This document shows, piece by piece, positions 1 to 18,271 of a stretch of DNA of 18,416 nucleotides. The stretch's first letter is position 1. Every line of letters starts with the position of its first letter. The position numbers and the translations under genes are program-made. Under the pieces are notes generated by a model that saw only the letters and a program-made list of their open reading frames with translations, did not search any database and was not told the origin of the DNA. The stretch lies in the UHGV virus genome UHGV-0317024, one strand, 5' to 3'. The stretch is from a virus.

Positions 1-1
1 A

Positions 2-382
2 AAATACAACGTAGAATACATCGGTATTGATGCCACCGGCCTCGGTGTCGGCGTGTTCCAGCTCGTGCGCTCGTTCTATCCTGCCGCGCGCGATATCCGC
101 TACACGCCGGAAATGAAAACCGCAATGGTGCTCAAGGCCAAAGACGTTATCCGCCGTGGCTGTCTGGAATATGACGTCAGCGCCACCGACATCACCAGCT
201 CGTTTATGGCTATCCGCAAGACCATGACCAGCAGCGGACGCAGCGCCACGTATGAGGCCAGCCGCAGCGAGGAAGCCAGCCACGCCGACCTCGCCTGGGC
301 GACCATGCACGCCCTGTTAAATGAGCCACTCACCGCCGGTATCAGCACCCCGCTGACATCCACCATTCTGGAGTTTTACTGA
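2..382 (+). CDS. P: Terminase large (ATPase) subunit, C-terminal part; 5' end lies outside the window
   Basis: Reading frame is open from nt 2 (no stop) to TGA at 380-382, so the listed 53..382 ORF is only the tail of a longer gene. Stop overlaps the portal start codon in a TGATG junction. Call rests on position directly upstream of the portal gene and next to cos, as in the P2 P-Q operon; I do not recall the P2 gpP sequence itself. Confidence 0.7.
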   Translation, partial: KYNVEYIGIDATGLGVGVFQLVRSFYPAARDIRYTPEMKTAMVLKAKDVIRRGCLEYDVSATDITSSFMAIRKTMTSSGRSATYEASRSEEASHADLAWATMHALLNEPLTAGISTPLTSTILEFY

Positions 383-1416
383 TGAGCAAGAAAAAAGGGA
401 AAACACAGCAACCTGCGGCAAAAAAAATGACCGCCAGCGCCCCGAAAATGGAGGCATTCACCTTTGGTGAACCGGTACCGGTACTCGACCGCCGTGACAT
501 TCTGGATTACGTCGAGTGCATCAGTAACGGCAGATGGTATGAGCCACCGGTCAGCTTTACCGGTCTGGCAAAAAGCCTGCGTGCTGCCGTACATCACAGC
601 TCACCGATTTACGTCAAACGTAATATTCTGGCTTCAACGTTTATTCCGCACCCGTGGCTTTCCCAGCAGGATTTCAGCCGCTTTGTGCTGGATTTTCTGG
701 TGTTCGGTAATGCGTTTCTGGAAAAGCGTTACAGCACCACCGGTAAGGTCATCAGACTGGAAACCTCACCGGCAAAATATACCCGCCGTGGCGTGGAGGA
801 GGATGTTTACTGGTGGGTGCCGTCCTTCAACGAGCCGACAGCCTTCGCGCCCGGCTCCGTGTTTCACCTGCTGGAGCCGGATATTAATCAGGAGCTGTAC
901 GGCCTGCCGGAATATCTCAGCGCCCTTAATTCTGCCTGGCTGAATGAGTCGGCCACGCTGTTCCGCCGCAAGTATTACGAAAACGGCGCTCATGCCGGAT
1001 ATATCATGTACGTCACCGATGCCGTGCAGGATCGCAACGATATCGAAATGCTTCGCGAAAACATGGTCAAGTCGAAAGGCCGCAACAACTTTAAAAATCT
1101 GTTTCTCTATGCCCCGCAGGGGAAAGCCGACGGCATTAAAATTATCCCGCTCAGTGAAGTGGCAACGAAGGACGATTTTTTTAATATCAAAAAAGCCAGC
1201 GCCGCTGACCTGCTGGACGCGCACCGCATCCCCTTTCAGCTGATGGGTGGCAAGCCGGAAAACGTCGGGTCGCTGGGCGATATTGAGAAAGTGGCAAAGG
1301 TCTTTGTCCGCAATGAGCTTATCCCGCTACAGGACAGGATCCGCGAGATAAACGACTGGCTCGGTCAGGAGGTCATCCGCTTTAAAAACTACTCACTGGA
1401 CACTGACAACGGCTGA
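382..1416 (+). CDS. Q: Capsid portal protein (gpQ-like), 344 aa
   Basis: 344-aa ORF, same length as P2 gpQ; coupled to the upstream gene by ATG overlapping its stop; ends about 170 bp before the cos site, as in P2. Confidence 0.85.
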   Translation: MSKKKGKTQQPAAKKMTASAPKMEAFTFGEPVPVLDRRDILDYVECISNGRWYEPPVSFTGLAKSLRAAVHHSSPIYVKRNILASTFIPHPWLSQQDFSRFVLDFLVFGNAFLEKRYSTTGKVIRLETSPAKYTRRGVEEDVYWWVPSFNEPTAFAPGSVFHLLEPDINQELYGLPEYLSALNSAWLNESATLFRRKYYENGAHAGYIMYVTDAVQDRNDIEMLRENMVKSKGRNNFKNLFLYAPQGKADGIKIIPLSEVATKDDFFNIKKASAADLLDAHRIPFQLMGGKPENVGSLGDIEKVAKVFVRNELIPLQDRIREINDWLGQEVIRFKNYSLDTDNG

Positions 1417-1421
1417 ACATC

Positions 1422-1444
1422 GCCGCCTGCGGGCGGCTTTTTTA
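1422..1444 (+). terminator. Rho-independent terminator of the P-Q packaging operon
   Basis: Perfect 6-bp GC stem GCCGCC(1422-1427)/GGCGGC(1432-1437) with TGCG loop, followed by T-run 1438-1444, 6 nt after the Q stop codon. Confidence 0.7.
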
Positions 1445-1585
1445 CATCCCGTCATCACGCCCTCACACGCTCACCACCGCACAAAACAGCCCGCAGGCAA
1501 ACCAACGCCTCAACGGACAGACTAAGCGCCGTCACGACGCGCTGAGACGCTGAAAAAATAAAATCAGCACCACCGCCAGCGCGCA

Positions 1586-1604
1586 GTGCTTTCCCCGCCT
1601 CGCC
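1586..1604. other. cos site, 19-nt cohesive end of P2 type
   Basis: Plus strand GTGCTTTCCCCGCCTCGCC is the exact reverse complement of the P2 cohesive end GGCGAGGCGGGGAAAGCAC as I recall it; it sits between Q and the replication side, as in P2. Confidence 0.8.
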
Positions 1605-1718
1605 CGCCCGCTTCATGGGGCGGTTTTAATGCAGTTGCATAGATACTATGGATCCGCACCAGTCCTGACCGCACGCAGCCTGAACGGACATCCCCGACGC
1701 ATGCAAAAACATTCACTT

Positions 1719-1730
1719 GTTGCATGCAAC
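1719..1730. promoter_or_regulatory. Perfect 12-bp palindrome GTTGCATGCAAC upstream of the first cargo gene; candidate operator
   Basis: Perfect dyad read from sequence; a further GCATGCA copy at 1700-1706; lies about 110 bp upstream of the 1843 start codon in an AT-rich leader. Confidence 0.25.
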
Positions 1731-1842
1731 GGCTTATTTAATGACAAATCAACTTAAATTTACAAAATCCACAGGTATGGATACTTTGCGAACATGATAG
1801 GCTTACGAGAATTATCGAGCCTATTTTTGACCGGAGCAATGT

Positions 1843-2784
1843 ATGCAAGGTAAAGTTGACGAACAGCAATCCAATGATATTGAAGCTGAGTTTGGATACT
1901 ATCCAGTAGAAGTTAACGTTGAAACTGATGATTTTTCTTTACTTACTTTACCCGGTCTGGCGGAAAAAACAAATCTTATAAACAATCACAGAAATGTTAT
2001 TAACGGTTGGATATACCCAGGAAACCAAGAAGTATATAACCTCAATGGAGGCATATCCACAATGCCTTTTAGCCAACGAGTATTTGGCTTACCCAAAACA
2101 CACTCACTAAAATTAAAAAATACATCTTCACTAGAAACTCTCAATTTTGCTGTGTGGTGTCTGTCTTTTTTCAAAGGGATAAGATTAACAACTACTGATG
2201 CCGGTTTTTTAGACGCAACCCCAATAAAACCCAGCAAATTAACTGACTTTATTCTGGTCAAGTGCTCTGAAAAAGAGGTTATAGAATTAGCACTCAAATA
2301 CATGTCTAGCGAGACAAAAACCAAACACGCACCAATAAATATAGCAGCAATAGTGCATGCACTATTTTTATCCCAAAACCCACAATACCTTAGCTTCGAA
2401 AAATTCCAGTATCTTTACATGGCACTGGATAGTTGCTTTGCTTTAACATGGGCAGAAAAGAACAAGTGTACAGAAAAGACTCTAAATCACTCCAGGCGCT
2501 TGAAGTGGATCTGCAAAACTTATGGAATACCACGACCATCATGGGTTACAGGCAAAAAAAACATTACAAACATCCGCAATGAAAACTTTCATGAAGCTAT
2601 GTTTCATGGTCAACCACTTGGCTTTACCACTATTAACAATTATCAATATGGAGATGACATATTACAACAAATGCAGGCTTTAATTTGCCGATTACTCGTT
2701 GCGATTCTTGGTGTTAACGCCCCCGATTACATCACATCGAACGTGAACTCTCGTGAATATCATTCACTAACATTAAAAATATAA
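1843..2784 (+). CDS. Hypothetical protein, 313 aa, AT-rich cargo gene; function unknown (weak HEPN-like Rx4H motif at residues 245-250)
   Basis: Long ORF with SD GGAG (1833-1836) 6 nt before ATG. Codon usage is strongly AT-biased compared with flanking phage genes. No Walker or other clear catalytic motif recognised. R245-N-E-N-F-H250 fits Rx4H but that alone is not diagnostic. Confidence 0.6.
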   Translation: MQGKVDEQQSNDIEAEFGYYPVEVNVETDDFSLLTLPGLAEKTNLINNHRNVINGWIYPGNQEVYNLNGGISTMPFSQRVFGLPKTHSLKLKNTSSLETLNFAVWCLSFFKGIRLTTTDAGFLDATPIKPSKLTDFILVKCSEKEVIELALKYMSSETKTKHAPINIAAIVHALFLSQNPQYLSFEKFQYLYMALDSCFALTWAEKNKCTEKTLNHSRRLKWICKTYGIPRPSWVTGKKNITNIRNENFHEAMFHGQPLGFTTINNYQYGDDILQQMQALICRLLVAILGVNAPDYITSNVNSREYHSLTLKI

Positions 2785-2799
2785 AACGACTAAAAATAC

Positions 2800-2825
2800 T
2801 CTCCAGTAACAATAAGTACTGGAGA
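2800..2825. terminator. Hairpin between convergent cargo genes; possible bidirectional terminator
   Basis: 9-bp perfect stem TCTCCAGTA(2800-2808)/TACTGGAGA(2817-2825) with 8-nt loop, between the stop of the 313-aa gene (2784) and the stop of the minus-strand 199-aa gene (2867). The flanking T-tracts are weak. Confidence 0.4.
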
Positions 2826-2866
2826 TGTATTATCACTAAAACCAATAAAAAATCACAACTAATGCT

Positions 2867-3466
2867 TTACTTAGATAGTTTGTCTTTAATTATATTCAGA
2901 ACACCAATTATTAATTCACTGATTGGCGTGGCCAACTCAATAGTATTAGATGTCGACTTTGTTCTAAAGTCTTTATCTGTCGGGTGTTGAAATGCTGATT
3001 TAAGAAGAGTCAAAAGCAAAGTTAAACCCACACCAAGGATGAATGCAACAATAGCTATTAGAGAACTGGCCGATAACCAATCGGTGGATAAACCAGAAAT
3101 AGATTTTCTAACTTTATTAGTGTCTGAAGATGGTGTTATCCTCTCATCAGCCATCTTCGGATCCGAAGATAAAGCAGAACATTTTTCTGCTGAAACACAA
3201 GTTTGTGTATCTACTTTTTGTGTTATCGCTGCGGCAATACTGCTTTTCGCTTCCAGCAAGCCATTTCCAACAGCCAAAGCAAAGTTAAGCCCCTGCCATA
3301 GAAATGTACAAGCAAAACAAAGCACAACGGCAGAGAGCACTAATCGCATACTTCTACGCTCTATACCATCCCGTCTATCTCGCCTTATAAGGATATCAGG
3401 ATCTAAATCGCCCTTAGGAGTGGTTCCTTGCTCTGGGGACTGTCCAGATAAATCAATATCAGCCAT
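2867..3466 (-). CDS. Predicted membrane protein with two transmembrane helices, 199 aa; function unknown
   Basis: Two hydrophobic segments (about residues 40-67 and 130-155) separated by a Ser/Thr-rich hydrophilic loop; charged N-terminal 39 residues. AT-rich. Lies downstream of and co-oriented with the ImmA-like gene. No strong SD at the first ATG. Confidence 0.55.
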   Translation of the reverse strand: MADIDLSGQSPEQGTTPKGDLDPDILIRRDRRDGIERRSMRLVLSAVVLCFACTFLWQGLNFALAVGNGLLEAKSSIAAAITQKVDTQTCVSAEKCSALSSDPKMADERITPSSDTNKVRKSISGLSTDWLSASSLIAIVAFILGVGLTLLLTLLKSAFQHPTDKDFRTKSTSNTIELATPISELIIGVLNIIKDKLSK

Positions 3467-3505
3467 AAAAAAATCACCCTTACATGTACAAACGTAAAGG
3501 TGATT
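3467..3505 (-). terminator. Hairpin plus U-tract immediately upstream of the 2-TM gene start; candidate attenuator or terminator
   Basis: On the minus strand an ~11-bp stem (one G-U pair) with a 12-nt loop is followed by seven U (plus-strand A-run 3467-3473), directly abutting the ATG at 3466. Confidence 0.45.
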
Positions 3506-3532
3506 TTAAACAGGTTAAAAGTTAAAGGCTAA

Positions 3533-4018
3533 TTAATAAGCCATTCCTAAGCTCTTTAAGCGCCAATGCATAGCGGCTTCTGATACATTAAAGATGCTTG
3601 CTAATCTCAAAGTGCTATCAATACCTTCTCTGGATACCAATTGACGTATAGCAGACTCAGGCATTAACAACTCAGCAGCAAACTTGTTTGCTTCAACCTC
3701 ACGGTAATCACGAGCACCTGTTGAATAATTCCCGACATTATCCCGATGGTACTCTCCGTCCTGGGTATGCCCCAGCACATGATGACCTAACTCGTGTGCA
3801 ACAGTAAAACGTTGACGATTAGAATGTTCACTAGAATCAAAATAAATCCTATGGACACCCTTTTTGATGACAGCCAGACCGCTTAACCCATCGTTGTTAT
3901 AAGCCGATTCCTCAAGTGCTTCAACACGAGCACCCCACGCTTTAGCAAGCTTAAACGGATCGACAGGTAGTCGGCGATCCCAATAGCGGTCAAGCAGTTT
4001 TTTAGCTGCATAGCTCAT
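3533..4018 (-). CDS. ImmA/IrrE-family zinc metallopeptidase-like protein (HEXXH), 161 aa
   Basis: HELGH motif at residues 75-79 (nt 3782-3796) in the context FTVAHELGHHVLGH, with downstream EVEANKFAAELLMPE typical of the ImmA/IrrE (DUF955) fold. Strong SD AGGAGG 5 nt upstream of the ATG. AT-rich cargo. Confidence 0.8.
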   Translation of the reverse strand: MSYAAKKLLDRYWDRRLPVDPFKLAKAWGARVEALEESAYNNDGLSGLAVIKKGVHRIYFDSSEHSNRQRFTVAHELGHHVLGHTQDGEYHRDNVGNYSTGARDYREVEANKFAAELLMPESAIRQLVSREGIDSTLRLASIFNVSEAAMHWRLKSLGMAY

Positions 4019-4660
4019 GGTTGCCTCCTACGTTAAAAAAGTTAAGTATGCACAGCCATATCACAGTTGTTATTTTATGTCAAGGCTGTTTTTCAGCCAT
4101 TACTATAACACTAATCCACGTTTTCCCATAACATTTTCGACATCATATATGCATTCAGTTCTGCATATAGAGCTTATCTTTGCTGATAACACGAGATGAA
4201 TACGCGCAACCAGCCCACGATTTATAAAAAACCTTATAAATCAGAATATTGAGTTAAAAAAACACTAACTACTTGCGCAGCGAGTTGTTAAACCTCAGCG
4301 ATACTAAAAGAAAATTTCAGAGTCACCGAAGTTTCCACAGAAAACGCAACTTAATGATTTTATTGGAATTTATGTCGCTATTTTTAATTACTTGTTTAAA
4401 TCCGCCATATTGAAACTGTGCATTTCTAGCCACTCACAACTTTAAAAAATTTACATTGCTTTCAAGACCTTATCATCCGTAGTCTCTGCTTTTTACTTTG
4501 AGCTATATCAAAAAAAGCTCAAACATCCTTGATGCAAAACCAGTATTACACAACATAAAATGCAACCAGAAACAACGACATACTATATGTTGTGTTGTTC
4601 AGGTCCTCTGTTCGGTGATATGCCAGATCACTTTGCGTTTAAACAGAGCATTATTTCAGG

Positions 4661-4674
4661 GCAAGACTTCGCTC
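4661..4674 (+). repeat. Direct repeat copy 1, GCAAGACTTCGCTC
   Basis: Exact 14-nt match to 4925-4938; each copy is followed within 3-25 nt by AGTCACTC. Confidence 0.6.
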
Positions 4675-4739
4675 AATAGTCACTCCGCCTTAGAAGCGCA
4701 TATATCGGCGGAAATTGCCCTCTGCTTACAGGAGGCGAT

Positions 4740-4853
4740 ATGAAGAAGTGCTATTACTGCATTCTCGTTCTGGCCCTCTTTGGCTATCCATATGGTAGTC
4801 CGAGTGGTTTGTCAGTAAACGTCAGTAATATCCATGTAAGTATTTTTCTTTAG
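4740..4853 (+). CDS. Candidate small hydrophobic peptide, 37 aa (MKKCYYCILVLALFGYPYGSPSGLSVNVSNIHVSIFL)
   Basis: Not in the supplied ORF track. Canonical SD AGGAGG (4730-4735) 4 nt before ATG 4740; stop TAG 4851-4853; followed 18 nt later by a terminator; hydrophobic Cys/Tyr-rich N-terminus. Confidence 0.3.
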   Translation: MKKCYYCILVLALFGYPYGSPSGLSVNVSNIHVSIFL

Positions 4854-4861
4854 TATGCTTC

Positions 4862-4895
4862 AAACAAAAAAACCACCTGCCAGGGTGGTTTTTTT
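4862..4895. terminator. Bidirectional rho-independent terminator
   Basis: Stem CCACCT(4873-4878)/GGGTGG(4883-4888, one G-U pair), flanked by A-run 4862-4872 and T-run 4889-4895. Can terminate the small plus-strand ORF and minus-strand transcription leaving gene A. Confidence 0.65.
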
Positions 4896-4924
4896 GCGCC
4901 CGTCATCAATCCGATGAAAGACTA

Positions 4925-4938
4925 GCAAGACTTCGCTC
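4925..4938 (+). repeat. Direct repeat copy 2, GCAAGACTTCGCTC
   Basis: Exact 14-nt match to 4661-4674. Confidence 0.6.
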
Positions 4939-5155
4939 GAGATGAATTATGCTTCGACATAAAGTCACTCGCAATGGTTTTATTAACCGAAATAGATGCT
5001 CTTTTATGACTCGAATCAAATAGCTGCCTTCAATTACATGCTAACGATTCAATACAATTTAGCCTTCTGATTCAACACGCTATTGCTCCTCATCTACCTT
5101 AGAGGTGTTTCGCATAATCCATTCAAAGACATATAAAATCACGCTGTATTTTTAC

Positions 5156-7432
5156 TCAAATGGGTAACAAAAATCCCGGCCAATCATCAGCGACCTGATA
5201 AGTGAAAGGTTTCCCGTCATAATTTACGGTCGCGCCACGCGCCAGCGCCTCAAGCTCCCATCGTTGCGGCCTGATACCGTTCTGAGCGAGATCAACGCGG
5301 ATACGGGTAATTTGCAATCGTTCCGACCGGGTCAGTCTGGCCGATGGTGCAATTTCATGCGGTTTTAACGGGCTTCCGTTTCTTTGCTGACGGTTTGGCG
5401 TTCTCCGGTCGTGTTTTAATGCGCCCCTGAGCGCCCTCACGACCTCCGGGTCATTCCATTCGATAACATCGTCATCAACCAGATTAAGCACTGCTGCGGC
5501 GTGCTCAGAAGGTGTGGGAGCCGGTAACGAAGTATCACCACCGGTGAGCTTTCCACAGTTATTGACAGGACTCCGAGGCGCGGCGATGCCGCTTTTTAAA
5601 GTCAAAGGCTGAACGACCGGAACTTTCGGCACAATGCGCCAGTCCGTCGTTCTGGTGATATGAATATGACGCGCGCCGAGATGCGGCGCGTAAATGCCGA
5701 CCACTCTCTCGACCTCTTCCTCGTACTCGTTAACGTCATCCGACAGACTACGGGCGACCCTGACAGTCTGACAATCGCGCGGGACATTTGCCCCACCCTG
5801 CGCGCTGATATACAGCGCAAAATCACCACTGTCTGCGGCGGCGCGTGCAGCCTCGACGCGCTCGTCAAACTCATCAGCAATGCTGACGCCGCGAGGCAAT
5901 TTGCGTAGTTCACGGTAAGCCCCCATTGTCGGCAGGCCAACCGTTTTAAATTGCGGAATGCGCCACGTTGACGCCCATGCGGTAACAGCCGCTGCAGTGT
6001 CTTTCAGCGGCCTGCCGGTGTCGTTATCGAGCTGACCATCCAGTGCATAGCCGTCGATGTTTTTTGAAATGTATTTCGCGATATATCCCGCAGCACCGCC
6101 CCGGTTAAGGTGTTTTGCCTGAAAACGGTTTCGCGCGGCTCCTCTTTCGTCGCCATCCTCTTTGAGCGCATAGCGACGCATGATTTCGATAATCTGGTTA
6201 CGCTGGCGTGGATGACAAAAAAGCATCATATGCCAGTGCGGCGTTCCGTCGTGGTGTGGCTCGACGACTCGCAAACCGTAGACCTGTAAATCATTATCCT
6301 TGAATGCCGTGCGCATCAGGCTCCAGATACGGCAGAGATAACGCTGCGCATCCTTTGGATTAAATGCCTCATCGTTCCAGCCGTGATTAAGCTGAACGGT
6401 TTTACTTTCGCCTTTTCCGACCTGACGTGTCGGGTGATACTTTGACGGCGCGGTCAGCGTGATAAACATCCCCACATCACCCTCTGCGGCGGCGTAACGC
6501 TCAATACCGGCAATGGTGTTCATCAGCTCCATCCGGCGAATTTCAGGATTAGAAATACTGCCCATCACCTTACTGATAAGGTCGATGCGCTCGCCGGTTT
6601 CCCTGTTTTCAAGGTCACACGATTTAAGAAATTCCAGATTTGCCTGGCGGCGCGCACGCACATCACGAATGGCGTGTTTACTGGCATAAGGAGAACGGTC
6701 TTTATTGACCTCCCCGACAGCTATCAGTAACGCCTCATGCCAGCGCATACGCTGGCCTTTAAGCTGATGAGTCCACCACTCATCGTTAAACAGGCGGGCA
6801 ATGGCAGAATATGCCTGCCTCGTGGTCATCTGTCCTTTACGGTATTTTTTCCAGTAGAGCGGGGAAATATTGAAAGCACGTGCAGCGCCAGCAACATGAC
6901 CATACAGGTGAGCCTGCGCCTCATCCGTAAACAGCGATTCTTTTTCACCATGCGCATCCACCCATGCATCGCAGAGTTCCTCATACATCATGAAAAGCTG
7001 CGATGAGATACGGGCGGCAAACTTTTTCAGCTCCTTGTCATTCATTCCCGGCAGGCGCGCATAGTGGTCACGCTCTGCCAGAAACAGCAACGACGCGTCG
7101 GTGTTCATTTCATGGCGCTGATTCACACGCTCAATGCGCGGCCATAAACGACGCTGAAAAGTAGATGTGAGGAAATAAAACCCGTGCACCGGGCTTTTAT
7201 TGCGCCGGATGTAGTCATAGCGTGAAGTAAACAGCGAGCGCAAAAAGTAAGGCAGGCGGTTAATCGTGGATAAAACACCTTGCACCTGACGCATCTCGTC
7301 ACGTGTAAGAGGTCTTTCGCGCCCGACAGCCTCGCGTGGCGCGTTCCATGCATAAGCACCGGTAAACGCCTTACCGGTGCCTGCGGTAAATGCTGACGGA
7401 GGGACAAAACGCCCGGAGGCTTTAACGGCCAT
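5156..7432 (-). CDS. A: Rolling-circle replication initiation endonuclease (gpA-like)
   Basis: The 772-aa ORF begins at a TTG at 7474; I place the start at the ATG at 7432 (MAVKASGRFVPP...), which matches the P2 gpA N-terminus as I recall it and gives 758 aa against 761 in P2. Position downstream of the early operon is as in P2. Confidence 0.85.
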   Translation of the reverse strand: MAVKASGRFVPPSAFTAGTGKAFTGAYAWNAPREAVGRERPLTRDEMRQVQGVLSTINRLPYFLRSLFTSRYDYIRRNKSPVHGFYFLTSTFQRRLWPRIERVNQRHEMNTDASLLFLAERDHYARLPGMNDKELKKFAARISSQLFMMYEELCDAWVDAHGEKESLFTDEAQAHLYGHVAGAARAFNISPLYWKKYRKGQMTTRQAYSAIARLFNDEWWTHQLKGQRMRWHEALLIAVGEVNKDRSPYASKHAIRDVRARRQANLEFLKSCDLENRETGERIDLISKVMGSISNPEIRRMELMNTIAGIERYAAAEGDVGMFITLTAPSKYHPTRQVGKGESKTVQLNHGWNDEAFNPKDAQRYLCRIWSLMRTAFKDNDLQVYGLRVVEPHHDGTPHWHMMLFCHPRQRNQIIEIMRRYALKEDGDERGAARNRFQAKHLNRGGAAGYIAKYISKNIDGYALDGQLDNDTGRPLKDTAAAVTAWASTWRIPQFKTVGLPTMGAYRELRKLPRGVSIADEFDERVEAARAAADSGDFALYISAQGGANVPRDCQTVRVARSLSDDVNEYEEEVERVVGIYAPHLGARHIHITRTTDWRIVPKVPVVQPLTLKSGIAAPRSPVNNCGKLTGGDTSLPAPTPSEHAAAVLNLVDDDVIEWNDPEVVRALRGALKHDRRTPNRQQRNGSPLKPHEIAPSARLTRSERLQITRIRVDLAQNGIRPQRWELEALARGATVNYDGKPFTYQVADDWPGFLLPI

Positions 7433-7697
7433 ATGAGCCAAAAGCCTCTGAACAACGCTTGCTGAGTTGCTCAACCTGCGCGTTTAAATCAGCAAAAGAT
7501 TTTGCGCTTCCGGTCAGAATATCGTGATGCATCAGGCCGGAAACGAGCTGGCCTAATTTCGGGTAATAACCAACCACCGCCAGCCATTCCTGACCGGCGT
7601 TTTTACCGCTTTCCGCTCTCTTTTTCTCGTGGAGAATAAACTGAAAGCTGTCACTGGTAACGACATAACGTTCGCCAATTTCAATACGAATACTCAT
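7422..7697 (-). CDS. Early-operon hypothetical protein, 91 aa (P2 orf83 position)
   Basis: ORF with stop overlapping the A start and start overlapping the upstream gene stop (ATGA coupling); synteny with the P2 early operon. Confidence 0.6.
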   Translation of the reverse strand: MSIRIEIGERYVVTSDSFQFILHEKKRAESGKNAGQEWLAVVGYYPKLGQLVSGLMHHDILTGSAKSFADLNAQVEQLSKRCSEAFGSYGR

Positions 7698-7921
7698 GCC
7701 GTTCTCCGGTAATGTTTGTTTTTTGCTTCAAAGACTGACTGACAGGAAACACAACGCGTGGCTGACGGATAAGCCGCACGACGGGCAGCAGGTATTGGCG
7801 CGTCACACTCTTCGCAAACCAGCGCAGAAACACCGCAATGTTTTACCCTTGCCGCGTTAATCTGGCGCTCCAGTAATTCAGCCTGTTGTTCCTGAATAAA
7901 ATCCACGTTGTCCGGCATCAC
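7694..7921 (-). CDS. TraR/DksA-family C4 zinc-finger protein, 75 aa (P2 orf82 position)
   Basis: CEEC-N17-CVSC four-cysteine motif typical of TraR/DksA zinc fingers; translationally coupled to its neighbours. Confidence 0.75.
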   Translation of the reverse strand: MMPDNVDFIQEQQAELLERQINAARVKHCGVSALVCEECDAPIPAARRAAYPSATRCVSCQSVFEAKNKHYRRTA

Positions 7922-8223
7922 CAGCTCCTTTTGTCGTTCAGCTTCTTAAATTCATCAGCGCAATAACTGGCGAGTTCTGTCGTTAATTTTGTCAGTTCAT
8001 CCACTGAGGAAATTTGCTTGTGGAATACAGCGCGTTTAACAAGTAAATTGACCACATCAGACAGGAGGTTTAATTCACTCTGATAAATTGCGATAACAGA
8101 TTCAGTTATTTCGCGCTTCTCTTTATCAATACCAAGTTGAATAAGAGACAAATCACCATTTTTCATAACGGCGATTTTTAAGGCGTTATTCAGTAATACA
8201 ACCGAACGAGAACAGGACATCAA
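7918..8223 (-). CDS. Early-operon hypothetical protein, 101 aa (P2 orf81 position)
   Basis: ORF in the coupled series; AT-richer than its neighbours. Confidence 0.55.
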
Positions 8224-8444
8224 AGCACCTCCCCGCGAGACAATCCGATATTGTGAAATTTTTCCGACTCCTGACTGAGCAGCTCAACTATCTCCACGCG
8301 GGATAACTCCGCCTTTGTGATGTGGCGAATCATGGCGTCAAGATGAGAAGAAAAGCGCGTCGCAGCGTCGGCCTGTGCTTCGGTTCTGGCCTGTTGCAGC
8401 AGTAATGCGTATTTACCGCACTGATTTTCAGAAACTGTATGCAT
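8220..8444 (-). CDS. Early-operon hypothetical protein, 74 aa (P2 orf80 position)
   Basis: ORF coupled to the downstream gene by ATGA overlap. Confidence 0.55.
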
Positions 8445-8507
8445 GACTTTCTCCAGGCAAAAAGAAGCCCCGCACGATTAAGTGCGTTAAAAACTCTGGT
8501 TAATTAT

Positions 8508-9014
8508 TTAATGCAGATATTGCTCTGGTTTTACCGACGTCAGAATTGTCGGTGCATACTCAAACAGACTGAATAATTCACGTAATGCACGGAATAAAGC
8601 ATCACGCCAGTAACATGATTCTTCATTAATTCGCCAGTACGGCTGATTGAATTCTTTTTCTGTCAATCCCGCATGCATAAATAAAGTACGACGCTGACTG
8701 ACTGTTAAAAAACTAATATATGCATACTCACTTGCGCCGACCTGACGGCGTTTTGAGAATGCGCCACGCAATTCATCAATTGCACAAACCAGTCGTTCAC
8801 GTTCGACGTCGTTCATTTCTTCAAAACGCATCGTTGCGTGACGCTGTTTTAACTGTGCATGAAAGCAAACCGTTAGCCGTTCGCGCTCCATCATCTGATT
8901 ATAATAATCACATGTATCCTGCCAGCGAGGGACGGCAAGATGCTTGCCAATTATCCGGCGCATAGCTGCTGGCTGTTTTTCAACGAGATTGAGCGTCATC
9001 ACTGTCATTTCCAT
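8508..9014 (-). CDS. B: Replication protein gpB-like (helicase-loading function in P2), 168 aa
   Basis: Size (P2 gpB is 166 aa) and position between cox and the small early ORFs. Confidence 0.65.
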   Translation of the reverse strand: MEMTVMTLNLVEKQPAAMRRIIGKHLAVPRWQDTCDYYNQMMERERLTVCFHAQLKQRHATMRFEEMNDVERERLVCAIDELRGAFSKRRQVGASEYAYISFLTVSQRRTLFMHAGLTEKEFNQPYWRINEESCYWRDALFRALRELFSLFEYAPTILTSVKPEQYLH

Positions 9015-9202
9015 ACCCTCCGGCTTTTCAGAAAGGTCAGAGCCTTTTTTAACGGACTCTGTTTTTTGGTGCGGATAATGATTCCCTTACGCCCCTTACC
9101 GTGGGTGATGGTGAAGTCAATCGCCCTGGGGCTTTCGTTACGCAATAACTGAGCAATACAACGCGGCTCATTCATAATCACAACCCCATCCACAAAAGCC
9201 AT
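9005..9202 (-). CDS. Small early-operon ORF, 65 aa (P2 orf78 position)
   Basis: ORF bridging the cox stop and the B start with short overlaps; no recognisable motif. Confidence 0.35.
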   Translation of the reverse strand: MAFVDGVVIMNEPRCIAQLLRNESPRAIDFTITHGKGRKGIIIRTKKQSPLKKALTFLKSRRVWK

Positions 9203-9465
9203 GCATCACGCTGTTCAACCGGTCGGTTATAAAACGCCTCACGTACAGCGCGATTAAACTCAGGAATGAAAACCCATTTTTCACCGGCACGAGCCTTCGG
9301 TTTGCAAGGATCACGCAATTCAATAATTGGTAATTTATTTGCCTTCACCATTTCACTGACGGCTGTCTTTGGCTTCCCTAATAAATCAGCAAATTTATCC
9401 ACATGAACCGCATCAAGCGGATACTGAATCACATAATTTTCAGCGTCCATATATGGTACCCTCAT
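9178..9465 (-). CDS. cox: Cox-like excisionase and early repressor
   Basis: About 90 aa, first gene of the leftward early operon, divergent from C; C-terminal region resembles the P2 Cox tail (W-L-x-W-x-G-L). The true start may be the internal ATG at 9450 (MDAENY...). Confidence 0.7.
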   Translation of the reverse strand: MRVPYMDAENYVIQYPLDAVHVDKFADLLGKPKTAVSEMVKANKLPIIELRDPCKPKARAGEKWVFIPEFNRAVREAFYNRPVEQRDAWLLWMGL

Positions 9466-9526
9466 AGGATCCAGCCCTTTCTAAACCACTCAAAACCGTT
9501 TAGATGCTGGTTTATTCTCAAATCAA

Positions 9527-9579
9527 TGGAACCTATATAGGTTCCAGTTTTGAGGGAATTTAGTCCCTATATAGGCACC
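9527..9579. promoter_or_regulatory. Immunity switch region (divergent early and repressor promoters) with two operator-like palindromes
   Basis: Perfect 20-bp palindrome TGGAACCTATATAGGTTCCA (9527-9546) and a second copy of the core CCTATATAGG (9566-9575), centres 34 bp apart, in the 121-bp gap between divergent cox and C. Confidence 0.55.
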
Positions 9580-9586
9580 ATGTCAA

Positions 9587-9880
9587 ATGAAATTAAGCGA
9601 AAAGATTAAGGCCTTGCGTGAGGCTGAAGGGCTAAGCCAATCAAAATTCTGTGAAATCATAGAGTTACCGCTAAGCACACTTAAAAAATATGAAGGAGGA
9701 AACTTTGAACCCGGTGGCACAGCTTTGCTAAAAATCACTATGCATCCCACATTCCAAAAATATGCTCTATGGCTTATGACAGATAAAACCGCGCCGGACG
9801 CAGGACAAATCGCACCGGCTCTCGCGCACATTGGGCCAGAGTCAACAGAGTCCAACCACTCCGCGAAAAGGATTGGCTAA
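9587..9880 (+). CDS. C: Immunity repressor C-like (HTH), 97 aa
   Basis: Small HTH protein divergent from cox; the motif GQIAPALAH matches the P2 C repressor C-terminal region as recalled; followed by int as in P2. Confidence 0.8.
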   Translation: MKLSEKIKALREAEGLSQSKFCEIIELPLSTLKKYEGGNFEPGGTALLKITMHPTFQKYALWLMTDKTAPDAGQIAPALAHIGPESTESNHSAKRIG

Positions 9881-9949
9881 CTCTATATAAAGATTACATT
9901 TTCACCATTTGCTACCAAGATGGTGAATACAGCGCCGGAGGGCTTTCTT

Positions 9950-10930
9950 ATGGCAATTAAGAAGCTCGATGATGGTCGCTATGAAGTGGACATTAGACCT
10001 CGCGGTCGCGACGGAAAACGCATCCGCAGGAAATTCGAAAGAAAAGCTGAAGCACTAGCATTTGAGCGATACACAATCGCCAATGCCAGTCAGAAAGAAT
10101 GGGGAGGCCAGCGAGCAGACCGCCGGACTTTGAGTGAGTTGCTGGACATCTGGTGGAAATATCACGGGCAAAACCACGAGCATGGAACAAAAGAGTTTAA
10201 TCATCTACTCAAAACCATCAGCGGCATAGGTGATATACCAGTGAGCAGGATGAGCAAAAGGGCTTTGATGGATTATCGTTCCATGCGACTACGTGATGGT
10301 ATCAGTGCCGCAACGATAAACCGTGACATGTACCGATTATCCGGCATGTTCACAAAATTAATTCAATTGGATGAATTTTCCGGGCAACACCCAATTCACG
10401 GACTGCCGCCACTGGCGGAGGCCAACCCTGAAATGACGTTCCTGGAAAAAGCAGAAATCGAAAAACTGTTAAATGTTTTGGCTGGTGATGACTTACTTGT
10501 CGCGCTTTTATGTCTGAGCACCGGAGGAAGATGGACGGAAGTTGCCACGCTAAAACCAGCACAGATTACAAATTGCAGGGTTACCTTCCTGAAAACCAAA
10601 AACGGTAAAAAGCGAACCGTGCCGATTTCTGAGGAACTGGAGAAAAAAGTTAAAGAGGAGGCCAGCGCCAAATTATTCAAAGTTGATTATGAGAAATTTT
10701 GCGGGATTTTACGCAGAGTGAAACCTGATATACCACCCAATCAGGCAACCCACATCCTGCGGCATACATTCGCAAGCCATTTCATGATGAATGGGGGCAA
10801 TATAATCGCACTGCAACAGATTCTGGGACATGCGAGCATTCAGCAGACGATGGCCTATGCGCACCTTGCGCCTGACTATCTGCAAAATGCCGTCGCTCTG
10901 AATCCACTAAAAGGCGGAGTGACGTTATAA
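9950..10930 (+). CDS. int: Tyrosine integrase
   Basis: Start placed at the internal ATG (MAIKKLDDGRYEV..., the P2 Int N-terminus) preceded by SD GGAGG. C-terminal catalytic region carries R...HxLRHT...Y (HILRHTFASHF, LGHASIQQTMAYAHL). Confidence 0.9.
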   Translation: MAIKKLDDGRYEVDIRPRGRDGKRIRRKFERKAEALAFERYTIANASQKEWGGQRADRRTLSELLDIWWKYHGQNHEHGTKEFNHLLKTISGIGDIPVSRMSKRALMDYRSMRLRDGISAATINRDMYRLSGMFTKLIQLDEFSGQHPIHGLPPLAEANPEMTFLEKAEIEKLLNVLAGDDLLVALLCLSTGGRWTEVATLKPAQITNCRVTFLKTKNGKKRTVPISEELEKKVKEEASAKLFKVDYEKFCGILRRVKPDIPPNQATHILRHTFASHFMMNGGNIIALQQILGHASIQQTMAYAHLAPDYLQNAVALNPLKGGVTL

Positions 10931-10945
10931 ATTTCCCCCTCTGAG

Positions 10946-10964
10946 TGTCCACATAGTGTCCACA
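10946..10964. repeat. Arm-type integrase binding repeats, left arm (TGTCCACA x2)
   Basis: TGTCCACAtagTGTCCACA; this is the reverse complement of the P2 Int arm-site consensus TGTGGACA as I recall it. Confidence 0.6.
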
Positions 10965-11141
10965 CTCAAGAAATTTTGAAACCGCTCCAAACCCTTACAG
11001 CTTTCGATAAGTACCTGTTTTTACTTTTGATTGCATGTAAGTAATTGATAAAAAAAACCCCCACATCATGTGGGGGAAGACAGGGATGGTGTCACAAAAA
11101 AGCACCTAACCTGATGATATAAATGGATTTATATCAAGCAC

Positions 11142-11160
11142 TGTCCACATAGCGTCCACA
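11142..11160. repeat. Arm-type integrase binding repeats, right arm (TGTCCACA x2)
   Basis: TGTCCACAtagcGTCCACA; near-identical to the 10946-10964 copy. Confidence 0.6.
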
Positions 11161-11175
11161 TCGACCATAAATAAA

Positions 11176-11200
11176 GCCCCTCAACTGAGGGGCTATTTTT
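11176..11200. terminator. Hairpin plus T-run downstream of ogr and int; likely bidirectional terminator
   Basis: Stem GCCCCTCA(11176-11183)/TGAGGGGC(11186-11193) followed by TATTTTT on the plus strand and TTTATTT on the minus strand. Confidence 0.5.
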
Positions 11201-11204
11201 GTGA

Positions 11205-11423
11205 TCACATCCACATAATTTGCTGCCCTGACGGCAACGGGTGCGGCCTTACGGCGTGGACTTCTCCCGGCTTCACGATGTATCGCTGTACCGACTCATA
11301 AGTGATGAACGTGGCGCTGCAATTCACGTTCTGACACTGGTGATAACGCTCTTTTGTCGTGTCAGTGATATAGCGGCTTGTACGCGCATGTGCGGCATGC
11401 TGGCATAAAGGACAATGAAACAT
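11205..11423 (-). CDS. ogr: Ogr zinc-finger late-gene activator, 72 aa
   Basis: Starting at the internal ATG gives MFHCPLCQHAAHARTSRYITDTTKERYHQCQNVNCSATFITYESVQRYIVKPGEVHAVRPHPLPSGQQIMWM, 72 aa, matching P2 Ogr as recalled, with the CxxC...CxxxxC zinc finger. Confidence 0.9.
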   Translation of the reverse strand: MFHCPLCQHAAHARTSRYITDTTKERYHQCQNVNCSATFITYESVQRYIVKPGEVHAVRPHPLPSGQQIMWM

Positions 11424-11504
11424 CGCGAGCACCTCTTCCGGTTTTGTTGATGGTGCCATTTTAGTTAATTTGTCCTTATAAAACAAACAGATAAAATAAA
11501 AACA

Positions 11505-12668
11505 TTACTCATCATCTTCTGTTTCGTACTCCACATCAGAAAGCCTGACCTCAAGCTCTAAGGACGTCGTGAAGCCGCGATTATTCAGAAAATGTGTCAC
11601 CTTAGTGATTGTCCAGTCCTGCTCGTCTATGACGCGCTTAAAACCTGACACTTTGACCGGCGTTTCCGTGTAAATATCTGCACGACCGGTAGCCAGGCTG
11701 ATGGAAAACTCCGCAACGCCCCGTTGCAGTTTATCCCACTTCGCCTGAGCGGCGCGCATGGCCTGCGCTTTCGTGGCATATACCGTGGTCAGGGCAAAAA
11801 CATTGTCAGCCTCACCGGCCATGTATTCACCTTCGCGCGCTTCCGGTACTTTTGGCGCTTTCTTCTGCGTGACCGGTTTCGCTTTCGGGTGCTCCAGTGC
11901 GCGCAGGTGTTTCTCTTTCTTTTTGCGTTTCAGTTTTACCTTCTGCTTTTGTGGCTTCGGGTCTTTGGTGTGTAACCACTTTGCCGTTACGCCGGTGTAG
12001 GCTCCACGGTCAGCAATCGCAAAATGATGACGGTCGCCGTCGCTGCGGGTGATGGTAATCTGCGGGATTTTTTTACCGCTGGCCGTCACCCCCTGCCCGG
12101 CTTTGAGAAACAACAGTTTTCCCATTTTTACCGACACCTCACCGCCGTTGCGTTCTGCTAGACGGGTCAGGAATTTCGCATCAGACTCCTGCGACTGATC
12201 GATGTGCGGGATTTTAATTCCGGCCAGTGACGGAGCGACACTGGCTTCCAGCCTGTTACGGGAGGCTATCGCCTCAACAATCGCACCGAGCGTGGTGTCA
12301 TGCCAGGAGCCTTCACGGCGGGAATTGAGCGTGCCACGAAAATCTGCACTCCGGGCCCGGATGGTGACCACATCCGGCGCGCCCCGGTGTTCTACCTCAT
12401 CAACGGTGAATTTCCCTTTGCATACCAGGGCAAAACCTTTCCAGCCGATATACACCGTCAGGACAGCGCCACGAACCGGCAGCCCGACCTGCCCGTCGGC
12501 ATCGTTCAGTTCAATATCAAGCTGGTCAGCCTCAAAGCCCCGGTTATCCGTCAGGGTCATGCTCATCAGACGGCCGCTGATATTGCCGGTAATATCCCTG
12601 CTGTCGAGCATCAGCATGTAATCCGGCGTCAGCGTACTGCCTGCATCAAATGTCAGTGCATCCAGCAT
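11505..12668 (-). CDS. D: Tail protein gpD-like, 387 aa
   Basis: Same length as P2 gpD and same position (last gene of the tail operon before ogr). Confidence 0.85.
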   Translation of the reverse strand: MLDALTFDAGSTLTPDYMLMLDSRDITGNISGRLMSMTLTDNRGFEADQLDIELNDADGQVGLPVRGAVLTVYIGWKGFALVCKGKFTVDEVEHRGAPDVVTIRARSADFRGTLNSRREGSWHDTTLGAIVEAIASRNRLEASVAPSLAGIKIPHIDQSQESDAKFLTRLAERNGGEVSVKMGKLLFLKAGQGVTASGKKIPQITITRSDGDRHHFAIADRGAYTGVTAKWLHTKDPKPQKQKVKLKRKKKEKHLRALEHPKAKPVTQKKAPKVPEAREGEYMAGEADNVFALTTVYATKAQAMRAAQAKWDKLQRGVAEFSISLATGRADIYTETPVKVSGFKRVIDEQDWTITKVTHFLNNRGFTTSLELEVRLSDVEYETEDDE

Positions 12669-13147
12669 TATCCCGCCCCCGTCATACCTGTGAATCTGGT
12701 CGCCAGACTGCCAGCCTTACCGATGAGCGATTCCGCCTGTTTACCGATATCACCATAAAGCGCGGCCAGTGATTCATCAACGCGGGTGAGTGACAGCGTA
12801 AAATCAATTTTCCGGGGTGTGCCGTCTGCAAAGAAAATACTCCCTGTTTCACTCACCCTGCTGATGACATACATACCGTAAATCATGCCAGTGCCATCCA
12901 GCAACGGCCACGCCCGGCCTTCCTCTGCCATCAGCCTGAGCGTGGTCATCGTCAGCTTGCCGCCGGTCAGTTCGGGATAAAGCACGCCGGCAAGCGTGAT
13001 GTTTTCCTCGCCAACACCGAGAAACTGGTAGGCATCCCGTTTACCGATACGGGAATTTGACGGCCAGCGATAATCTGATTCACGCTGCATGGTCTGGTGT
13101 GGCAGCGTCTGGCGCATAAAAACAAACATACCTAACGCGAGCATCAT
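12668..13147 (-). CDS. U: Tail protein gpU-like, 159 aa
   Basis: Same length as P2 gpU; its stop overlaps the D start. Confidence 0.85.
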   Translation of the reverse strand: MMLALGMFVFMRQTLPHQTMQRESDYRWPSNSRIGKRDAYQFLGVGEENITLAGVLYPELTGGKLTMTTLRLMAEEGRAWPLLDGTGMIYGMYVISRVSETGSIFFADGTPRKIDFTLSLTRVDESLAALYGDIGKQAESLIGKAGSLATRFTGMTGAG

Positions 13148-13161
13148 TTTTCGTCACCTCC

Positions 13162-15609
13162 TTAACCGTCATGCATCATGCTGGCACGGGCGCGCGCACG
13201 TTTATCCCGCTCGTATTTTTCGAGCGCATCCTGTAACTGGCGGTCAAGCTGTGTCCCCGGTGCAGTACCACCCGTCAGGCTGATGTGATATTCGTTTTTA
13301 CTCTGGTCCACATAAGAGCGGCCAGCCGGTGCCGTGACCGGCTGATAAGCCTGATAGCCTGCATAAGAGCTGGTCGCCGGAATATAACCACCGCTGCCAT
13401 ACGTGGCGGCTTGAGTTCTGGCGGCGGTCTGGTCAAGTGTGTCTGACTCTTTGTTGATAACACCGAGTTTTTCCAGTACCCAGTCAATACCGCTGCGCAG
13501 TTTGTTGAACGCATTAAGCGGCAGCATCAGCGCGTCAGCCAGTGCCTGCCCGAACATGACCCCCGTGTCACGGCAACGGTTCAGGGTATCCTGAGTGGCT
13601 TTGACCGGGGCAATCAGGTTTTTAAACCACTGCCACGCGGCCTGTAACTTTTCACCCAGCCAGTCAAACACCGGCTTAAGTGGCGTGAACAGTTCCCCCA
13701 CCGGCGCAAATGCCACTTTCAGCCCTTCAACCACACCGCCAAAGAATGCGCTGACAGGCTCCCAGTATTTACGGATAAGCAACGCCCCGGCGACAATTGC
13801 GGCCACCACGACCACAACCGGCCAGCTAATAGCCCCGATGGCGGTCATAACAGCACTGCCAACTGTCGTGAAGATTGCCCCCATTGCGCCTGCTGCCGCG
13901 ATAATGGCATTGATGCCGGTGATAACCGGCCAGGCTACAAGACCAATGGCACCGATGATGCCAGTAAGCGCCAGCGCGCCACCGACAATGAGGCCGATGG
14001 TTGACGCCAGTGATTTGTTTTTCTGGATCCAGCCGTCGAGTTTTAACACATACTTTGTGGCCGTCTGAGTGAGCTTACGCAGTGCGCCTTCCTGCTGGTC
14101 AAACAGGTCAGTCCCCACCGCCTCATAAGCGGACTGAAACTCCTTAAAGTCACCGCCGAGGTTGTCCTGCATGATATTTACCAGTTCTGCGGTCTTTCCG
14201 TCTGAGGCTTTAAACGCAGCGGTCAGTTTGTCCAGCTTTCCGGTTGAGGCGGCAGTCATCAGCACAGCGGCGGCTGAGCTGGCCTCCTCCCCGAAAATGG
14301 TTTTCATGTATTCGGCCTGCTGGGCAGTACCGAGCCGGTTTTTCTCAAAACTGGCCTGCATTTCTTTCAGAATGGTAAATACTGGTCGGGTGTTTCCCTT
14401 GCTGTCTGAGGTTTTCACGCCAAGCTCTTTGAGTGCATCCCATGCTTTTCCCGTTGGTGCCTGCAGGCGGCTTAACACGGCACGGCTTCCCGTCCCCGCC
14501 ATTGAGCCTGTGATTTTTGCATCATGCAGCGCCCCGACCATTGCGGCGGTTTCTTCAATGCTGACACCGGCATTTTTTGCCACAGGTGCGGCATAGGTCA
14601 GCGCATCGCTCATGCCGTCAAAATCGGCGGCAGTTTTGTTCATCGTCATGGAGAGAACATCCCCGATATGAGCGACCTTATCGTTTGAAAGCTGAAAGGC
14701 GGATTTCATCCCCATCAGCAGGGCGGCGTTTTCTTCCATCGTGCGGCGGTTCGCCAGCGCCATATTCAGCGTGACCGGCGTTGCCGCCTGAATGGCATCA
14801 ACATCCCCACCCGCTTTCGCGATGATTATCTGTGCACCGGCCGCATCATCCGCCGAGGCGGCGGTATTGTCGCCGAGCTGGCGCGCCTGCTTGCGTAGTG
14901 CAGCCATTTCGGCGGAGTCTTTTGCCACACCGAGCACAGCCTGCAATTCTGAGTTTTTCTGCGCAAACTCATAACCGGGCATCAGCAACTTAACTCCGGC
15001 CATCGTTCCCGCCGCCGCAATCCCCACACCGGCAGCGCCCACTGAGGCCATATTTCCGGCCAGTTCCTTTCCGGCCTGATAACGCTGTTTTACTGCGTTA
15101 AGTTTTGCCTGTTGTGCACTGACACGCGCCAGTGCGTCGCGCTGACGGTTAAGCTGTGCGGTGGTTTCACTGATACGGTTTTTCAGTCCCTGCTCATCAT
15201 GTGCAAGATTGCGGGTATTAATTCCCACAGCGGCCAGTTCCCGCTGCTGGCGTTTAACGGAATCCGTCAGGCGGTTATATTTCGCCTGTAAGTCCTCCGC
15301 CGCACGCTTTGCGGATTCCAGCACTTTCGCCTGAGCACGGGTCGGACGTTCGGTATTTTTAAACTGTGTGGCAAGGGCTTCGGCCTCCTGCCGAGCCTTT
15401 TCAAGTGCATGACCAGTCACGGCGAGCTGTGCACTGGTCTTGCGGAATCCCTCAATACGGGATGCCTGACCGTTCAGCTCGCGCAGTGATTTTTGTGTTT
15501 CCCGGATATCCCCCGACAGCGATTTGCTCGCTGTGCGGATGGATTTAAACGGGCGGGATGCCTGGTCAACAGCCCTGAGCAATACCTGTAATTTTACATT
15601 GTTACTCAT
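13162..15609 (-). CDS. T: Tail tape measure protein gpT-like, 815 aa
   Basis: 815 aa as in P2 gpT; N-terminal coiled-coil-like region, Ala/Gly-rich hydrophobic central segments and a long helical C-terminal part typical of tape measure proteins. Confidence 0.9.
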   Translation of the reverse strand: MSNNVKLQVLLRAVDQASRPFKSIRTASKSLSGDIRETQKSLRELNGQASRIEGFRKTSAQLAVTGHALEKARQEAEALATQFKNTERPTRAQAKVLESAKRAAEDLQAKYNRLTDSVKRQQRELAAVGINTRNLAHDEQGLKNRISETTAQLNRQRDALARVSAQQAKLNAVKQRYQAGKELAGNMASVGAAGVGIAAAGTMAGVKLLMPGYEFAQKNSELQAVLGVAKDSAEMAALRKQARQLGDNTAASADDAAGAQIIIAKAGGDVDAIQAATPVTLNMALANRRTMEENAALLMGMKSAFQLSNDKVAHIGDVLSMTMNKTAADFDGMSDALTYAAPVAKNAGVSIEETAAMVGALHDAKITGSMAGTGSRAVLSRLQAPTGKAWDALKELGVKTSDSKGNTRPVFTILKEMQASFEKNRLGTAQQAEYMKTIFGEEASSAAAVLMTAASTGKLDKLTAAFKASDGKTAELVNIMQDNLGGDFKEFQSAYEAVGTDLFDQQEGALRKLTQTATKYVLKLDGWIQKNKSLASTIGLIVGGALALTGIIGAIGLVAWPVITGINAIIAAAGAMGAIFTTVGSAVMTAIGAISWPVVVVVAAIVAGALLIRKYWEPVSAFFGGVVEGLKVAFAPVGELFTPLKPVFDWLGEKLQAAWQWFKNLIAPVKATQDTLNRCRDTGVMFGQALADALMLPLNAFNKLRSGIDWVLEKLGVINKESDTLDQTAARTQAATYGSGGYIPATSSYAGYQAYQPVTAPAGRSYVDQSKNEYHISLTGGTAPGTQLDRQLQDALEKYERDKRARARASMMHDG

Positions 15610-16029: not shown

Positions 16030-16085
16030 GGTTTTCTCACTTCTGAATCGGGGTTAACCGGTCAGCCTGGCTGACCGGATGAAAA

Positions 16086-16604: not shown

Positions 16605-16616
16605 CGGTCAGGCTCC

Positions 16617-17807: not shown

Positions 17808-17866
17808 CCGTTTAACTCCGTGGTTAATGGGTGAGTGGTATTTTCAGTTGTGCCGGAGATGTCAGG

Positions 17867-18244: not shown

Positions 18245-18271
18245 CTCCGGTTTTTATTCAGGGGGATGCTC

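Follow-up and report, generated by a model that had tools for sequence, protein, structure and literature searches.

Organization of the window

The stretch of DNA considered here, UHGV virus genome UHGV-0317024, is 18,416 nucleotides (nt) long and is referred to in its entirety as the window; it covers part of the genome of a P2-like coliphage (Peduovirus) with an integrase and an attachment site of the WΦ type. By megablast the entire window is placed among the P2-like phages, with 94-97% nucleotide identity to Peduovirus records that include many Escherichia and Yersinia P2-like phages, the top match being Salmonella phage MET_P1_103_31 (OQ383618) at 97.4%, over window 1586-18201 and in a single piece. 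Read from left to right the window runs in the reverse of the conventional P2 map, with the gene order P-Q-cos-cargo-A-B-cox-C-int-attP-ogr-D-U-T-E-FII-FI followed by the start of a hin-type invertase locus, Table 1. P2 gene order and P2 gene families are found on both sides of cos and on both sides of attP, as judged from the Pfam families of identical loci.

The cohesive-end site, cos, is present in joined form as the 19-nt sequence GGCGAGGCGGGGAAAGCAC (5'-3'), which is the published cohesive end of P2-related phages (PMC3931495). There is one occurrence in the window, with 0 mismatches and with 0 matches expected by chance, and it lies 170 nt downstream of Q. Because phage genes flank it, the portal gene Q to one side and the cargo with gene A to the other, cos is uncut and lies inside the sequence, in agreement with a reading of the window made from its letters before this work (the sequence-only reading). 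Linear phage records end at the same place. OQ383618 begins and ends with cos, and the stretch of the window shared by its two ends is exactly these 19 nt (window 1586-18201 corresponds to record 1-16615, and window 1-1604 to record 29979-31582), and the linear records of L-413C and P37 have an end at window 1586 and that of HQ103 at 1605.

The stop codons of int and ogr, at 10930 and 11205, respectively, are 274 nt apart and nothing but attP lies between them. The edges of attP were set by aligning the window with attL (fieF next to ogr) and attR (int next to cpxP) of the prophages in E. coli 1916D18 and isolateD. At the junctions of these two prophages the ogr side matches the window rightwards from 11047 and the int side leftwards up to 11093, and the part of the window shared by both junctions is thus a core of 47 nt, GATAAAAAAAACCCCCACATCATGTGGGGGAAGACAGGGATGGTGTC. 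The order in the window is the int-side arm of attR, a single core and the ogr-side arm of attL, with both host flanks missing. Host DNA was sought in 10931-11204 by alignment with attL and attR and none was found beyond the core, which is identical to attB. The exact core was found in 23 retrieved loci and is common to attL and attR at fieF-cpxP in E. coli 1916D18, isolateD, GCA_053271715 and others; it contains an inverted repeat that can be written as the hairpin CCCCCACAT-C-ATGTGGGGG.

Both arms carry a tandem pair of arm-type sites, TGTCCACATAGYGTCCACA, so that the sequence-only reading was right in describing int, attP and ogr as contiguous with paired arm repeats on both sides. The sequence tgTGGaCa is the consensus of the arm sites of P2-type Int proteins (PMC3448106), and in the full 18.4-kb window exact matches to TGTGGACA number only three, all inside the attP arms. 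The consensus for integration host factor (IHF), WATCAANNNNTTR, has its sole match in the window at 11038-11050, abutting the core; as about 0.9-1 match is expected per window, only the position of this match beside the core counts as evidence, and that evidence is suggestive. Taken together, a tyrosine integrase, a core and direct arm-type repeats on both sides make up an architecture that fits a site for Int and IHF, as predicted from these motifs.

One might ask whether the junction of int and ogr could be a chimera produced during assembly, or whether the phage could be integrated into a host replicon by way of a site that the window does not include. The window does contain one private rearrangement, close to its right end, so that its source sequence is not flawless. 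However, the canonical attP junction recurs in 37 independent phage records at 94-99% identity (99.1% for MET_P1_103_31, 97.9% for L-413C and 94.8% for WΦ) and consists of exactly the two phage-side arms and one core, whereas insertion in a host replicon is opposed by a matching scaffold, described below, that has no spare length for host DNA. We regard an artefact or an insertion of this kind as scarcely credible.

Table 1. Features of the window, with the strand on which each lies and the basis of its assignment
Feature	Position	Strand	Basis or remark
Gene P, 3' end (large terminase/ATPase subunit)	1-382	+	start precedes window; 590-aa Terminase_6N/6C gene of 100%-identical scaffold locus ends where Q starts
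Gene Q, portal protein, 344 aa	382-1416	+	PF04860 Phage_portal in identical loci; exact protein named phage portal protein by its sources
cos, 19-nt P2 cohesive end, joined, internal	1586-1604	-	single exact match to GGCGAGGCGGGGAAAGCAC
Variable cargo, low G+C	1843-4018		34-43% G+C versus about 55%; between cos and gene A
Cargo open reading frame (ORF), 313 aa	1843-2784	+	
Cargo ORF, 199 aa	2867-3466	-	
ImmA/IrrE (M78, CapP-like) metallopeptidase, 161 aa	3533-4018	-	Pfam PF06114, 3.8e-21; PADLOC capP, 1e-30
Gene A, rolling-circle replication endonuclease, 758 aa	5156-7432	-	PF05840 Phage_GPA
Early operon	7422-9450	-	Pfam families in identical loci; ORF starts checked
Early operon, DUF5405	7422-7697	-	
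Early operon, TraR/DksA zinc finger	7694-7918	-	
Early operon, DUF5405	7918-8220	-	
Early operon, DUF2732	8220-8444	-	
Early operon, gene B	8508-9008	-	
Early operon, cox	9178-9450	-	
Immunity repressor C, 97 aa, helix-turn-helix	9587-9880	+	annotated repressor protein C in MK907237; HTH_3 in identical loci
Tyrosine integrase, 326 aa, WΦ type	9950-10930	+	PF24624 Int_N and PF00589 Phage_integrase
attP P arm, int side	10931-11046		identical to phage side of attR
P-arm repeat TGTCCACATAGTGTCCACA	10946-10964		predicted; Int sites 10946-10953 and 10957-10964 (TGTGGACA on minus strand)
attP core, 47 nt	11047-11093		identical to attB between fieF and cpxP
attP P' arm, ogr side	11094-11204		identical to phage side of attL
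P'-arm repeat TGTCCACATAGCGTCCACA	11142-11160		predicted; arm-type sites 11142-11149 and 11153-11160
Terminator-like hairpin	11163-11206		downstream of ogr
ogr, late-gene activator, 72 aa	11205-11423	-	PF04606 Ogr_Delta in identical loci; OgrK in E. coli prophage annotations
Tail genes D-FI	11505-17807	-	Pfam families and ORFs
Tail gene D	11505-12668	-	
Tail gene U	12668-13147	-	
Tail gene T, tape measure	13162-15609	-	
Tail genes E/E'	15754-16029	-	plus frameshift product
Tail gene FII, tube	16086-16604	-	
Tail gene FI, sheath	16617-17807	-	
hin/gin-type serine invertase, C-terminal two thirds	17867-18201	-	translation; cut off at 18201
Inversion junction	18201/18202		GCTGCGAA joined to CAACGTTTATG
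Inverted piece, 215 nt	18202-18416	+	opposite to scaffold orientation
Content of inverted piece	18202-18216 and from 18272		1 nt, then centre and right half of 26-bp cix/hix-like site (18202-18216); invertase N-terminal coding (from 18272)

Integrated counterparts

Prophages of close relatives lie between fieF and cpxP in E. coli 1916D18 and isolateD. Where the phage itself is integrated, cpxP adjoins int and fieF adjoins ogr, and the match to the window ceases precisely at one or the other edge of the 47-nt core, which places int and ogr at opposite ends of the integrated element as the sequence-only reading had supposed. Integrated phages of this type are very common in E. coli and Salmonella. 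In the assembly collection 29,170 blocks list the exact integrase of the window, and cpxP is next to it in all 10 of the 10 matches listed, in both E. coli and Salmonella contexts; the matches listed for the Q protein are all chromosomal prophages, with the scaffold described below not among them, and a look-up of the exact tape-measure protein gave only mosaic prophages at other att sites.

Out of ten window proteins, gpA proved rare as an exact match (9-19 contigs), and its look-up gave nine places, one of them the scaffold described below. Eight other contigs with an identical gpA, from E. coli isolates and Logan assemblies, are 99.96-100% identical to the window, within 1-11093 only; those that reach past 11093, the right edge of the core, run into cpxP and two stop earlier. 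Counterpart contigs on the ogr side match from 11047 and continue into fieF. This same phage is thus on record as a prophage, with just the differences from the window that integration would bring. In the window itself, int and ogr do not lie at opposite ends abutting host DNA, and an uninterrupted cos together with an uninterrupted attP excludes both a single integrated prophage and a virion molecule that ends at cos.

In order to look for intact attP in chromosomes a probe of 181 nt, made up of the attP core and 67 nt of the arm on either side, was compared with 5,426 complete E. coli genomes, at a coverage of at least 80%. An intact attP was found in 0 of the 5,426; the maximum coverage of the probe was 63-68%, which corresponds to one arm and the core, that is, to attL or attR. 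Candidates for a chromosomal attP in complete E. coli genomes, where megablast seemed to match 77-98% of the window at one place, were rejected, as the matches are ordinary, internally deleted prophages between fieF and cpxP whose pieces had been put together in permuted order by the comparison program.

Two further kinds of copy were noted. Four E. coli remnants of about 1.7 kb (H51-H54; for example NZ_CM137004.1, 4367665-4369369) carry the integrase, a fragment of VgrG/Pvc8 (gene D) and ogrK in succession, and the attP probe is covered in two pieces; judging from annotation, these are probably prophages of this att type that have been cut down to their two ends by internal deletion. Two Salmonella records designated as plasmids, NZ_CP019203.1 (74624-84272) and NZ_CP092913.1 (72070-79978), contain phage halves that end exactly at the edges of the core (window 11093 and 11047). 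They could reflect integration at a plasmid-borne site resembling attB, or they could be mislabelled chromosomal contigs.

A matching metagenome scaffold

A scaffold that matches the window and in which ogr adjoins int is present in ENA (ERZ28657178, XUQI22-1_SAMN14445727_METAG-scaffold_1002; 31,570 bp). Window 1-18201 is 100% identical to it (1-17432 at 100.000% and 6617-18201 at 100%), and scaffold positions 8114-31570 (23.4 kb) contain phage genes only, with no host DNA. The prophage in E. coli GCA_053271715 measures 31,562 bp from outer core edge to outer core edge so that, with one core counted, the phage genome is 31,515 bp in length. The scaffold exceeds this value by 55 nt, assuming that there are no insertions or deletions in scaffold 1-8113. 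When mapped onto GCA_053271715 scaffold position 1 falls at path 30390 and the scaffold end at path 30336, an overlap (30336-30390) of 55 nt, and both mapped ends fall at the invertible tail-fibre segment beside the invertase gene. The usual final k-mer of metaSPAdes is 55, and a circular path is reported by this program as a terminal overlap of one k-mer. From a length of one genome plus 55 nt we infer the signature of a circular assembly path with k=55. By its length scaffold 1-8113 would just fit genes L through H/G as in GCA_053271715, and with 8.1 kb taken up by these genes there would be no room for host DNA in the scaffold.

Origin of the topology

The data described above lead us to consider it likely that the window comes from the excised, attP-form genome of a P2-like phage that was closed into a circle by the metagenome assembler. 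The biology of such a circle is established for P2 and is carried over to the present phage by homology. Linear virion DNA with 19-nt cohesive ends would be injected, whereupon the ends would anneal and then be ligated, and the resulting circle would hold both an uncut cos and an intact attP. It would be the substrate for integration mediated by Int and IHF at attB between fieF and cpxP and, following replication initiated by the product of gene A, monomeric circles would also be a substrate for terminase, to be cut at cos. The packaging substrate of P2 is circular double-stranded DNA, and reads that cross cos commonly lead assemblers to place cos randomly in a contig (PMC5557969). In the sample, reads over the joined cos and reads over attP would both have been present and dominant; the de Bruijn path would have run around the full genome, and the place at which it was then opened, in this case the invertible tail-fibre segment, would be arbitrary and would leave cos and attP internal.

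The core itself provides a gauge of which junctions prevailed. At 47 nt it is shorter than the k-mer of 55, so that abundant reads from attL and attR would cause the assembly graph to branch and the contig to break at the core. The scaffold runs through the core, and the attP path must therefore have dominated, which argues against a tandem double lysogen and, somewhat, against a mixture that is rich in lysogens.

Joined-cos reads from integrated prophages could have been merged by the assembler with attP reads from linear virion DNA, giving a composite circle even though no single circular molecule had been sampled. The sample, with METAG in its record name, is a bulk metagenome, integrated copies are very common in E. 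coli and Salmonella, and cos-crossing reads often derive from contaminating prophage or from circular forms (PMC5557969), all of which are in keeping with such a composite. Coverage derived in large part from lysogens should, however, branch at a core shorter than k and break the contig, and the continuous passage of the scaffold through attP speaks against it. A composite is a less probable origin, although one to which we assign some weight.

In a tandem double lysogen two prophages would be arranged head to tail at fieF-cpxP, with attP regenerated between them and a cos inside each. Tandem double lysogens of P2 are known from classical genetics, and the window would be free of host DNA in this case as well. 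The scaffold is one genome plus 55 nt in length and, within the 23.4 kb of 8114-31570, has no host genes; moreover, attL, attP and attR would be equimolar, so that a break in the assembly at the core would be expected. Of the 5,426 finished E. coli genomes, 0 have an attP of this type that is intact, and the matches listed are singly integrated, or stop short of the junction, in 10 of 10 cases for int, 9 of 9 for Q and 7 of 9 for gpA. A tandem arrangement is accordingly very improbable. The sequence-only reading had concluded that the window is not a simple integrated prophage, and this stands; of the origins that it then offered, a circular form or a circularised assembly is favoured and the junction of a tandem polylysogen is disfavoured.

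Several points weigh against an excised genome closed into a circle. In the case of scaffold 1-8113, length is the sole basis both for the lack of host DNA and for the terminal overlap. The case is built on assembled sequence, from which we infer the physical form of the molecules in the sample as well as the terminal overlap of 55 nt. In addition, the window is not byte-identical to scaffold_1002, its last 215 nt being inverted, so that its source may be another assembly version. Finally, exact patterns of 62-70 nt that span attP were not found in viral_contigs, genome_contigs or metagenome_contigs; the source is absent from these three collections.

The topology is an ordinary one that is already known. 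Circles that hold both cos and attP are textbook intermediates of P2, and the element belongs to a known Peduovirus group at the species level, in an excised form that is likewise known; in cos sequence, gene order, integrase family, arm sites and attB it conforms to the P2/WΦ paradigm. By itself, then, the topology yields no new biology. It does have a practical consequence in that a contig with internal cos and attP should be labelled as a complete, circularly permuted excised phage genome; labels such as prophage region or rearranged element should be avoided. With the landmarks described here, cos, the core and attB at fieF-cpxP, one can re-open the record at cos and assign a host (E. coli/Salmonella).

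The invertase locus and the right end of the window

The invertase gene that is cut off in the window is intact, encoding 197 aa (Resolvase and HTH_7), in scaffold_1002 and in isolates. Window 18202-18416 corresponds to positions 83-297 of the scaffold locus (L036) on the plus strand, and the window up to 18201 to the same locus from 412 onward on the minus strand; the same break is obtained against a second locus (L025) and against MET_P1_103_31. Judged from these alignments, it looks as if a segment of 329 nt (L036 83-411), made up of the N-terminal 259 nt of the invertase gene and the 70 nt upstream, has been flipped. Of the two breakpoints, one falls 1 nt away from the middle of a 26-bp cix/hix-like site, TTCTCCCAAACC-AA-CGTTTATGAAAA, and the other is inside the invertase gene, between the codons for ..INF and RSL...

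A clean exchange by a serine invertase is not supported for this junction, as it is 1 nt off the central AA, does not fit a 2-nt stagger and has a partner inside hin that is unlike the cix half-site. The 18201/18202 junction is present in 0 of the 5,426 E. coli genomes and is not in scaffold_1002, and the truncated invertase ORF, with either of two alternative starts, has no exact match on record. The junction may be either a private rearrangement or an artefact at the end of an assembly. In a more striking reading a persistent extrachromosomal circle, episomal or pseudolysogenic, and not a transient replication intermediate, would be the main form of the phage in the community; relatedly, the 329-nt inversion might be real and lock the tail-fibre (host-range) switch. 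We consider such readings very unlikely.

The neighbouring tail-fibre segment shows variation of its own. The C-terminal/assembly segment of the tail fibre in the scaffold (L036 1-97) is opposite in orientation to that in GCA_053271715 (L035, about 7400-9300), a 19-nt inverted repeat is shared at the switch point, and several short-read contigs, L037 and L038 among them, end within about 130 nt of the switch site. The opposite orientations and the contig ends fit an active host-range switch similar to those of Mu G and P1 C.

Cargo genes

The proteins of 313 and 199 aa that are encoded in the low G+C region between cos and gene A have no match in Pfam or PADLOC, and in PHROGs they fall in families 5937 and 8096, respectively, neither of which has an assigned function. 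Relatives carry other genes at this position, including methylases/methyltransferase, GmrSD/HEPN, an AAA_13 ATPase and Fic or DprA-like proteins. In view of these genes of relatives, the cargo may be an uncharacterised defence or regulatory module. We take its position to be that at which tin and old are carried on the P2 map.

A stretch of about 1.1 kb (window 4019-5155) that separates the ImmA/IrrE gene from the end of gene A has no ORF of more than 81 aa and no Rfam match at the gathering threshold. The top Rfam match in this interval, an RNAI-like one at 4787-4897, scores 27.8 bits versus a gathering score of 47 and is sub-threshold noise. The stretch is conserved in relatives with the same cargo.

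Comparison with known phages

The closest whole genome is that of MET_P1_103_31 (OQ383618), which has the same cargo genes and the same invertase locus in addition to the nearly identical attP described above. Its record gives the virion form, linear and with the 19-nt cos at each end, whereas the window is permuted with cos internal. A permuted record is available in vB_EcoM-12474III (MK907237), a 'complete genome' in which cos (window 1-1641 in one piece) and int-attP-ogr are internal, as in the window; its shared backbone is 96-97% identical and its cargo between cos and gene A is a different one.

WΦ (AY135739 / NC_005056) and L-413C (AY251033) have P2-type TGTGGACA arm repeats, as does the window, and the int-attP-ogr identities given for them above extend over 801 nt. 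L-413C has the attP core of WΦ and both are at MG1655 position 4104392 (PMC3448106). The window differs from these two phages in its cargo and in parts of the early region, and the identical core stretch as measured here is 47 nt. The MG1655 position we take to be within the fieF-cpxP interval.

P2 itself has the identical 19-nt cohesive end and the same gene order as the window. It presumably differs in having another attP core and another attB (locI), and old and tin where the present phage has the 313-aa, 199-aa and ImmA/IrrE cargo, and we assume that the hin-type invertase and invertible tail-fibre segment of this phage occupy the position of the P2 Z/fun locus.

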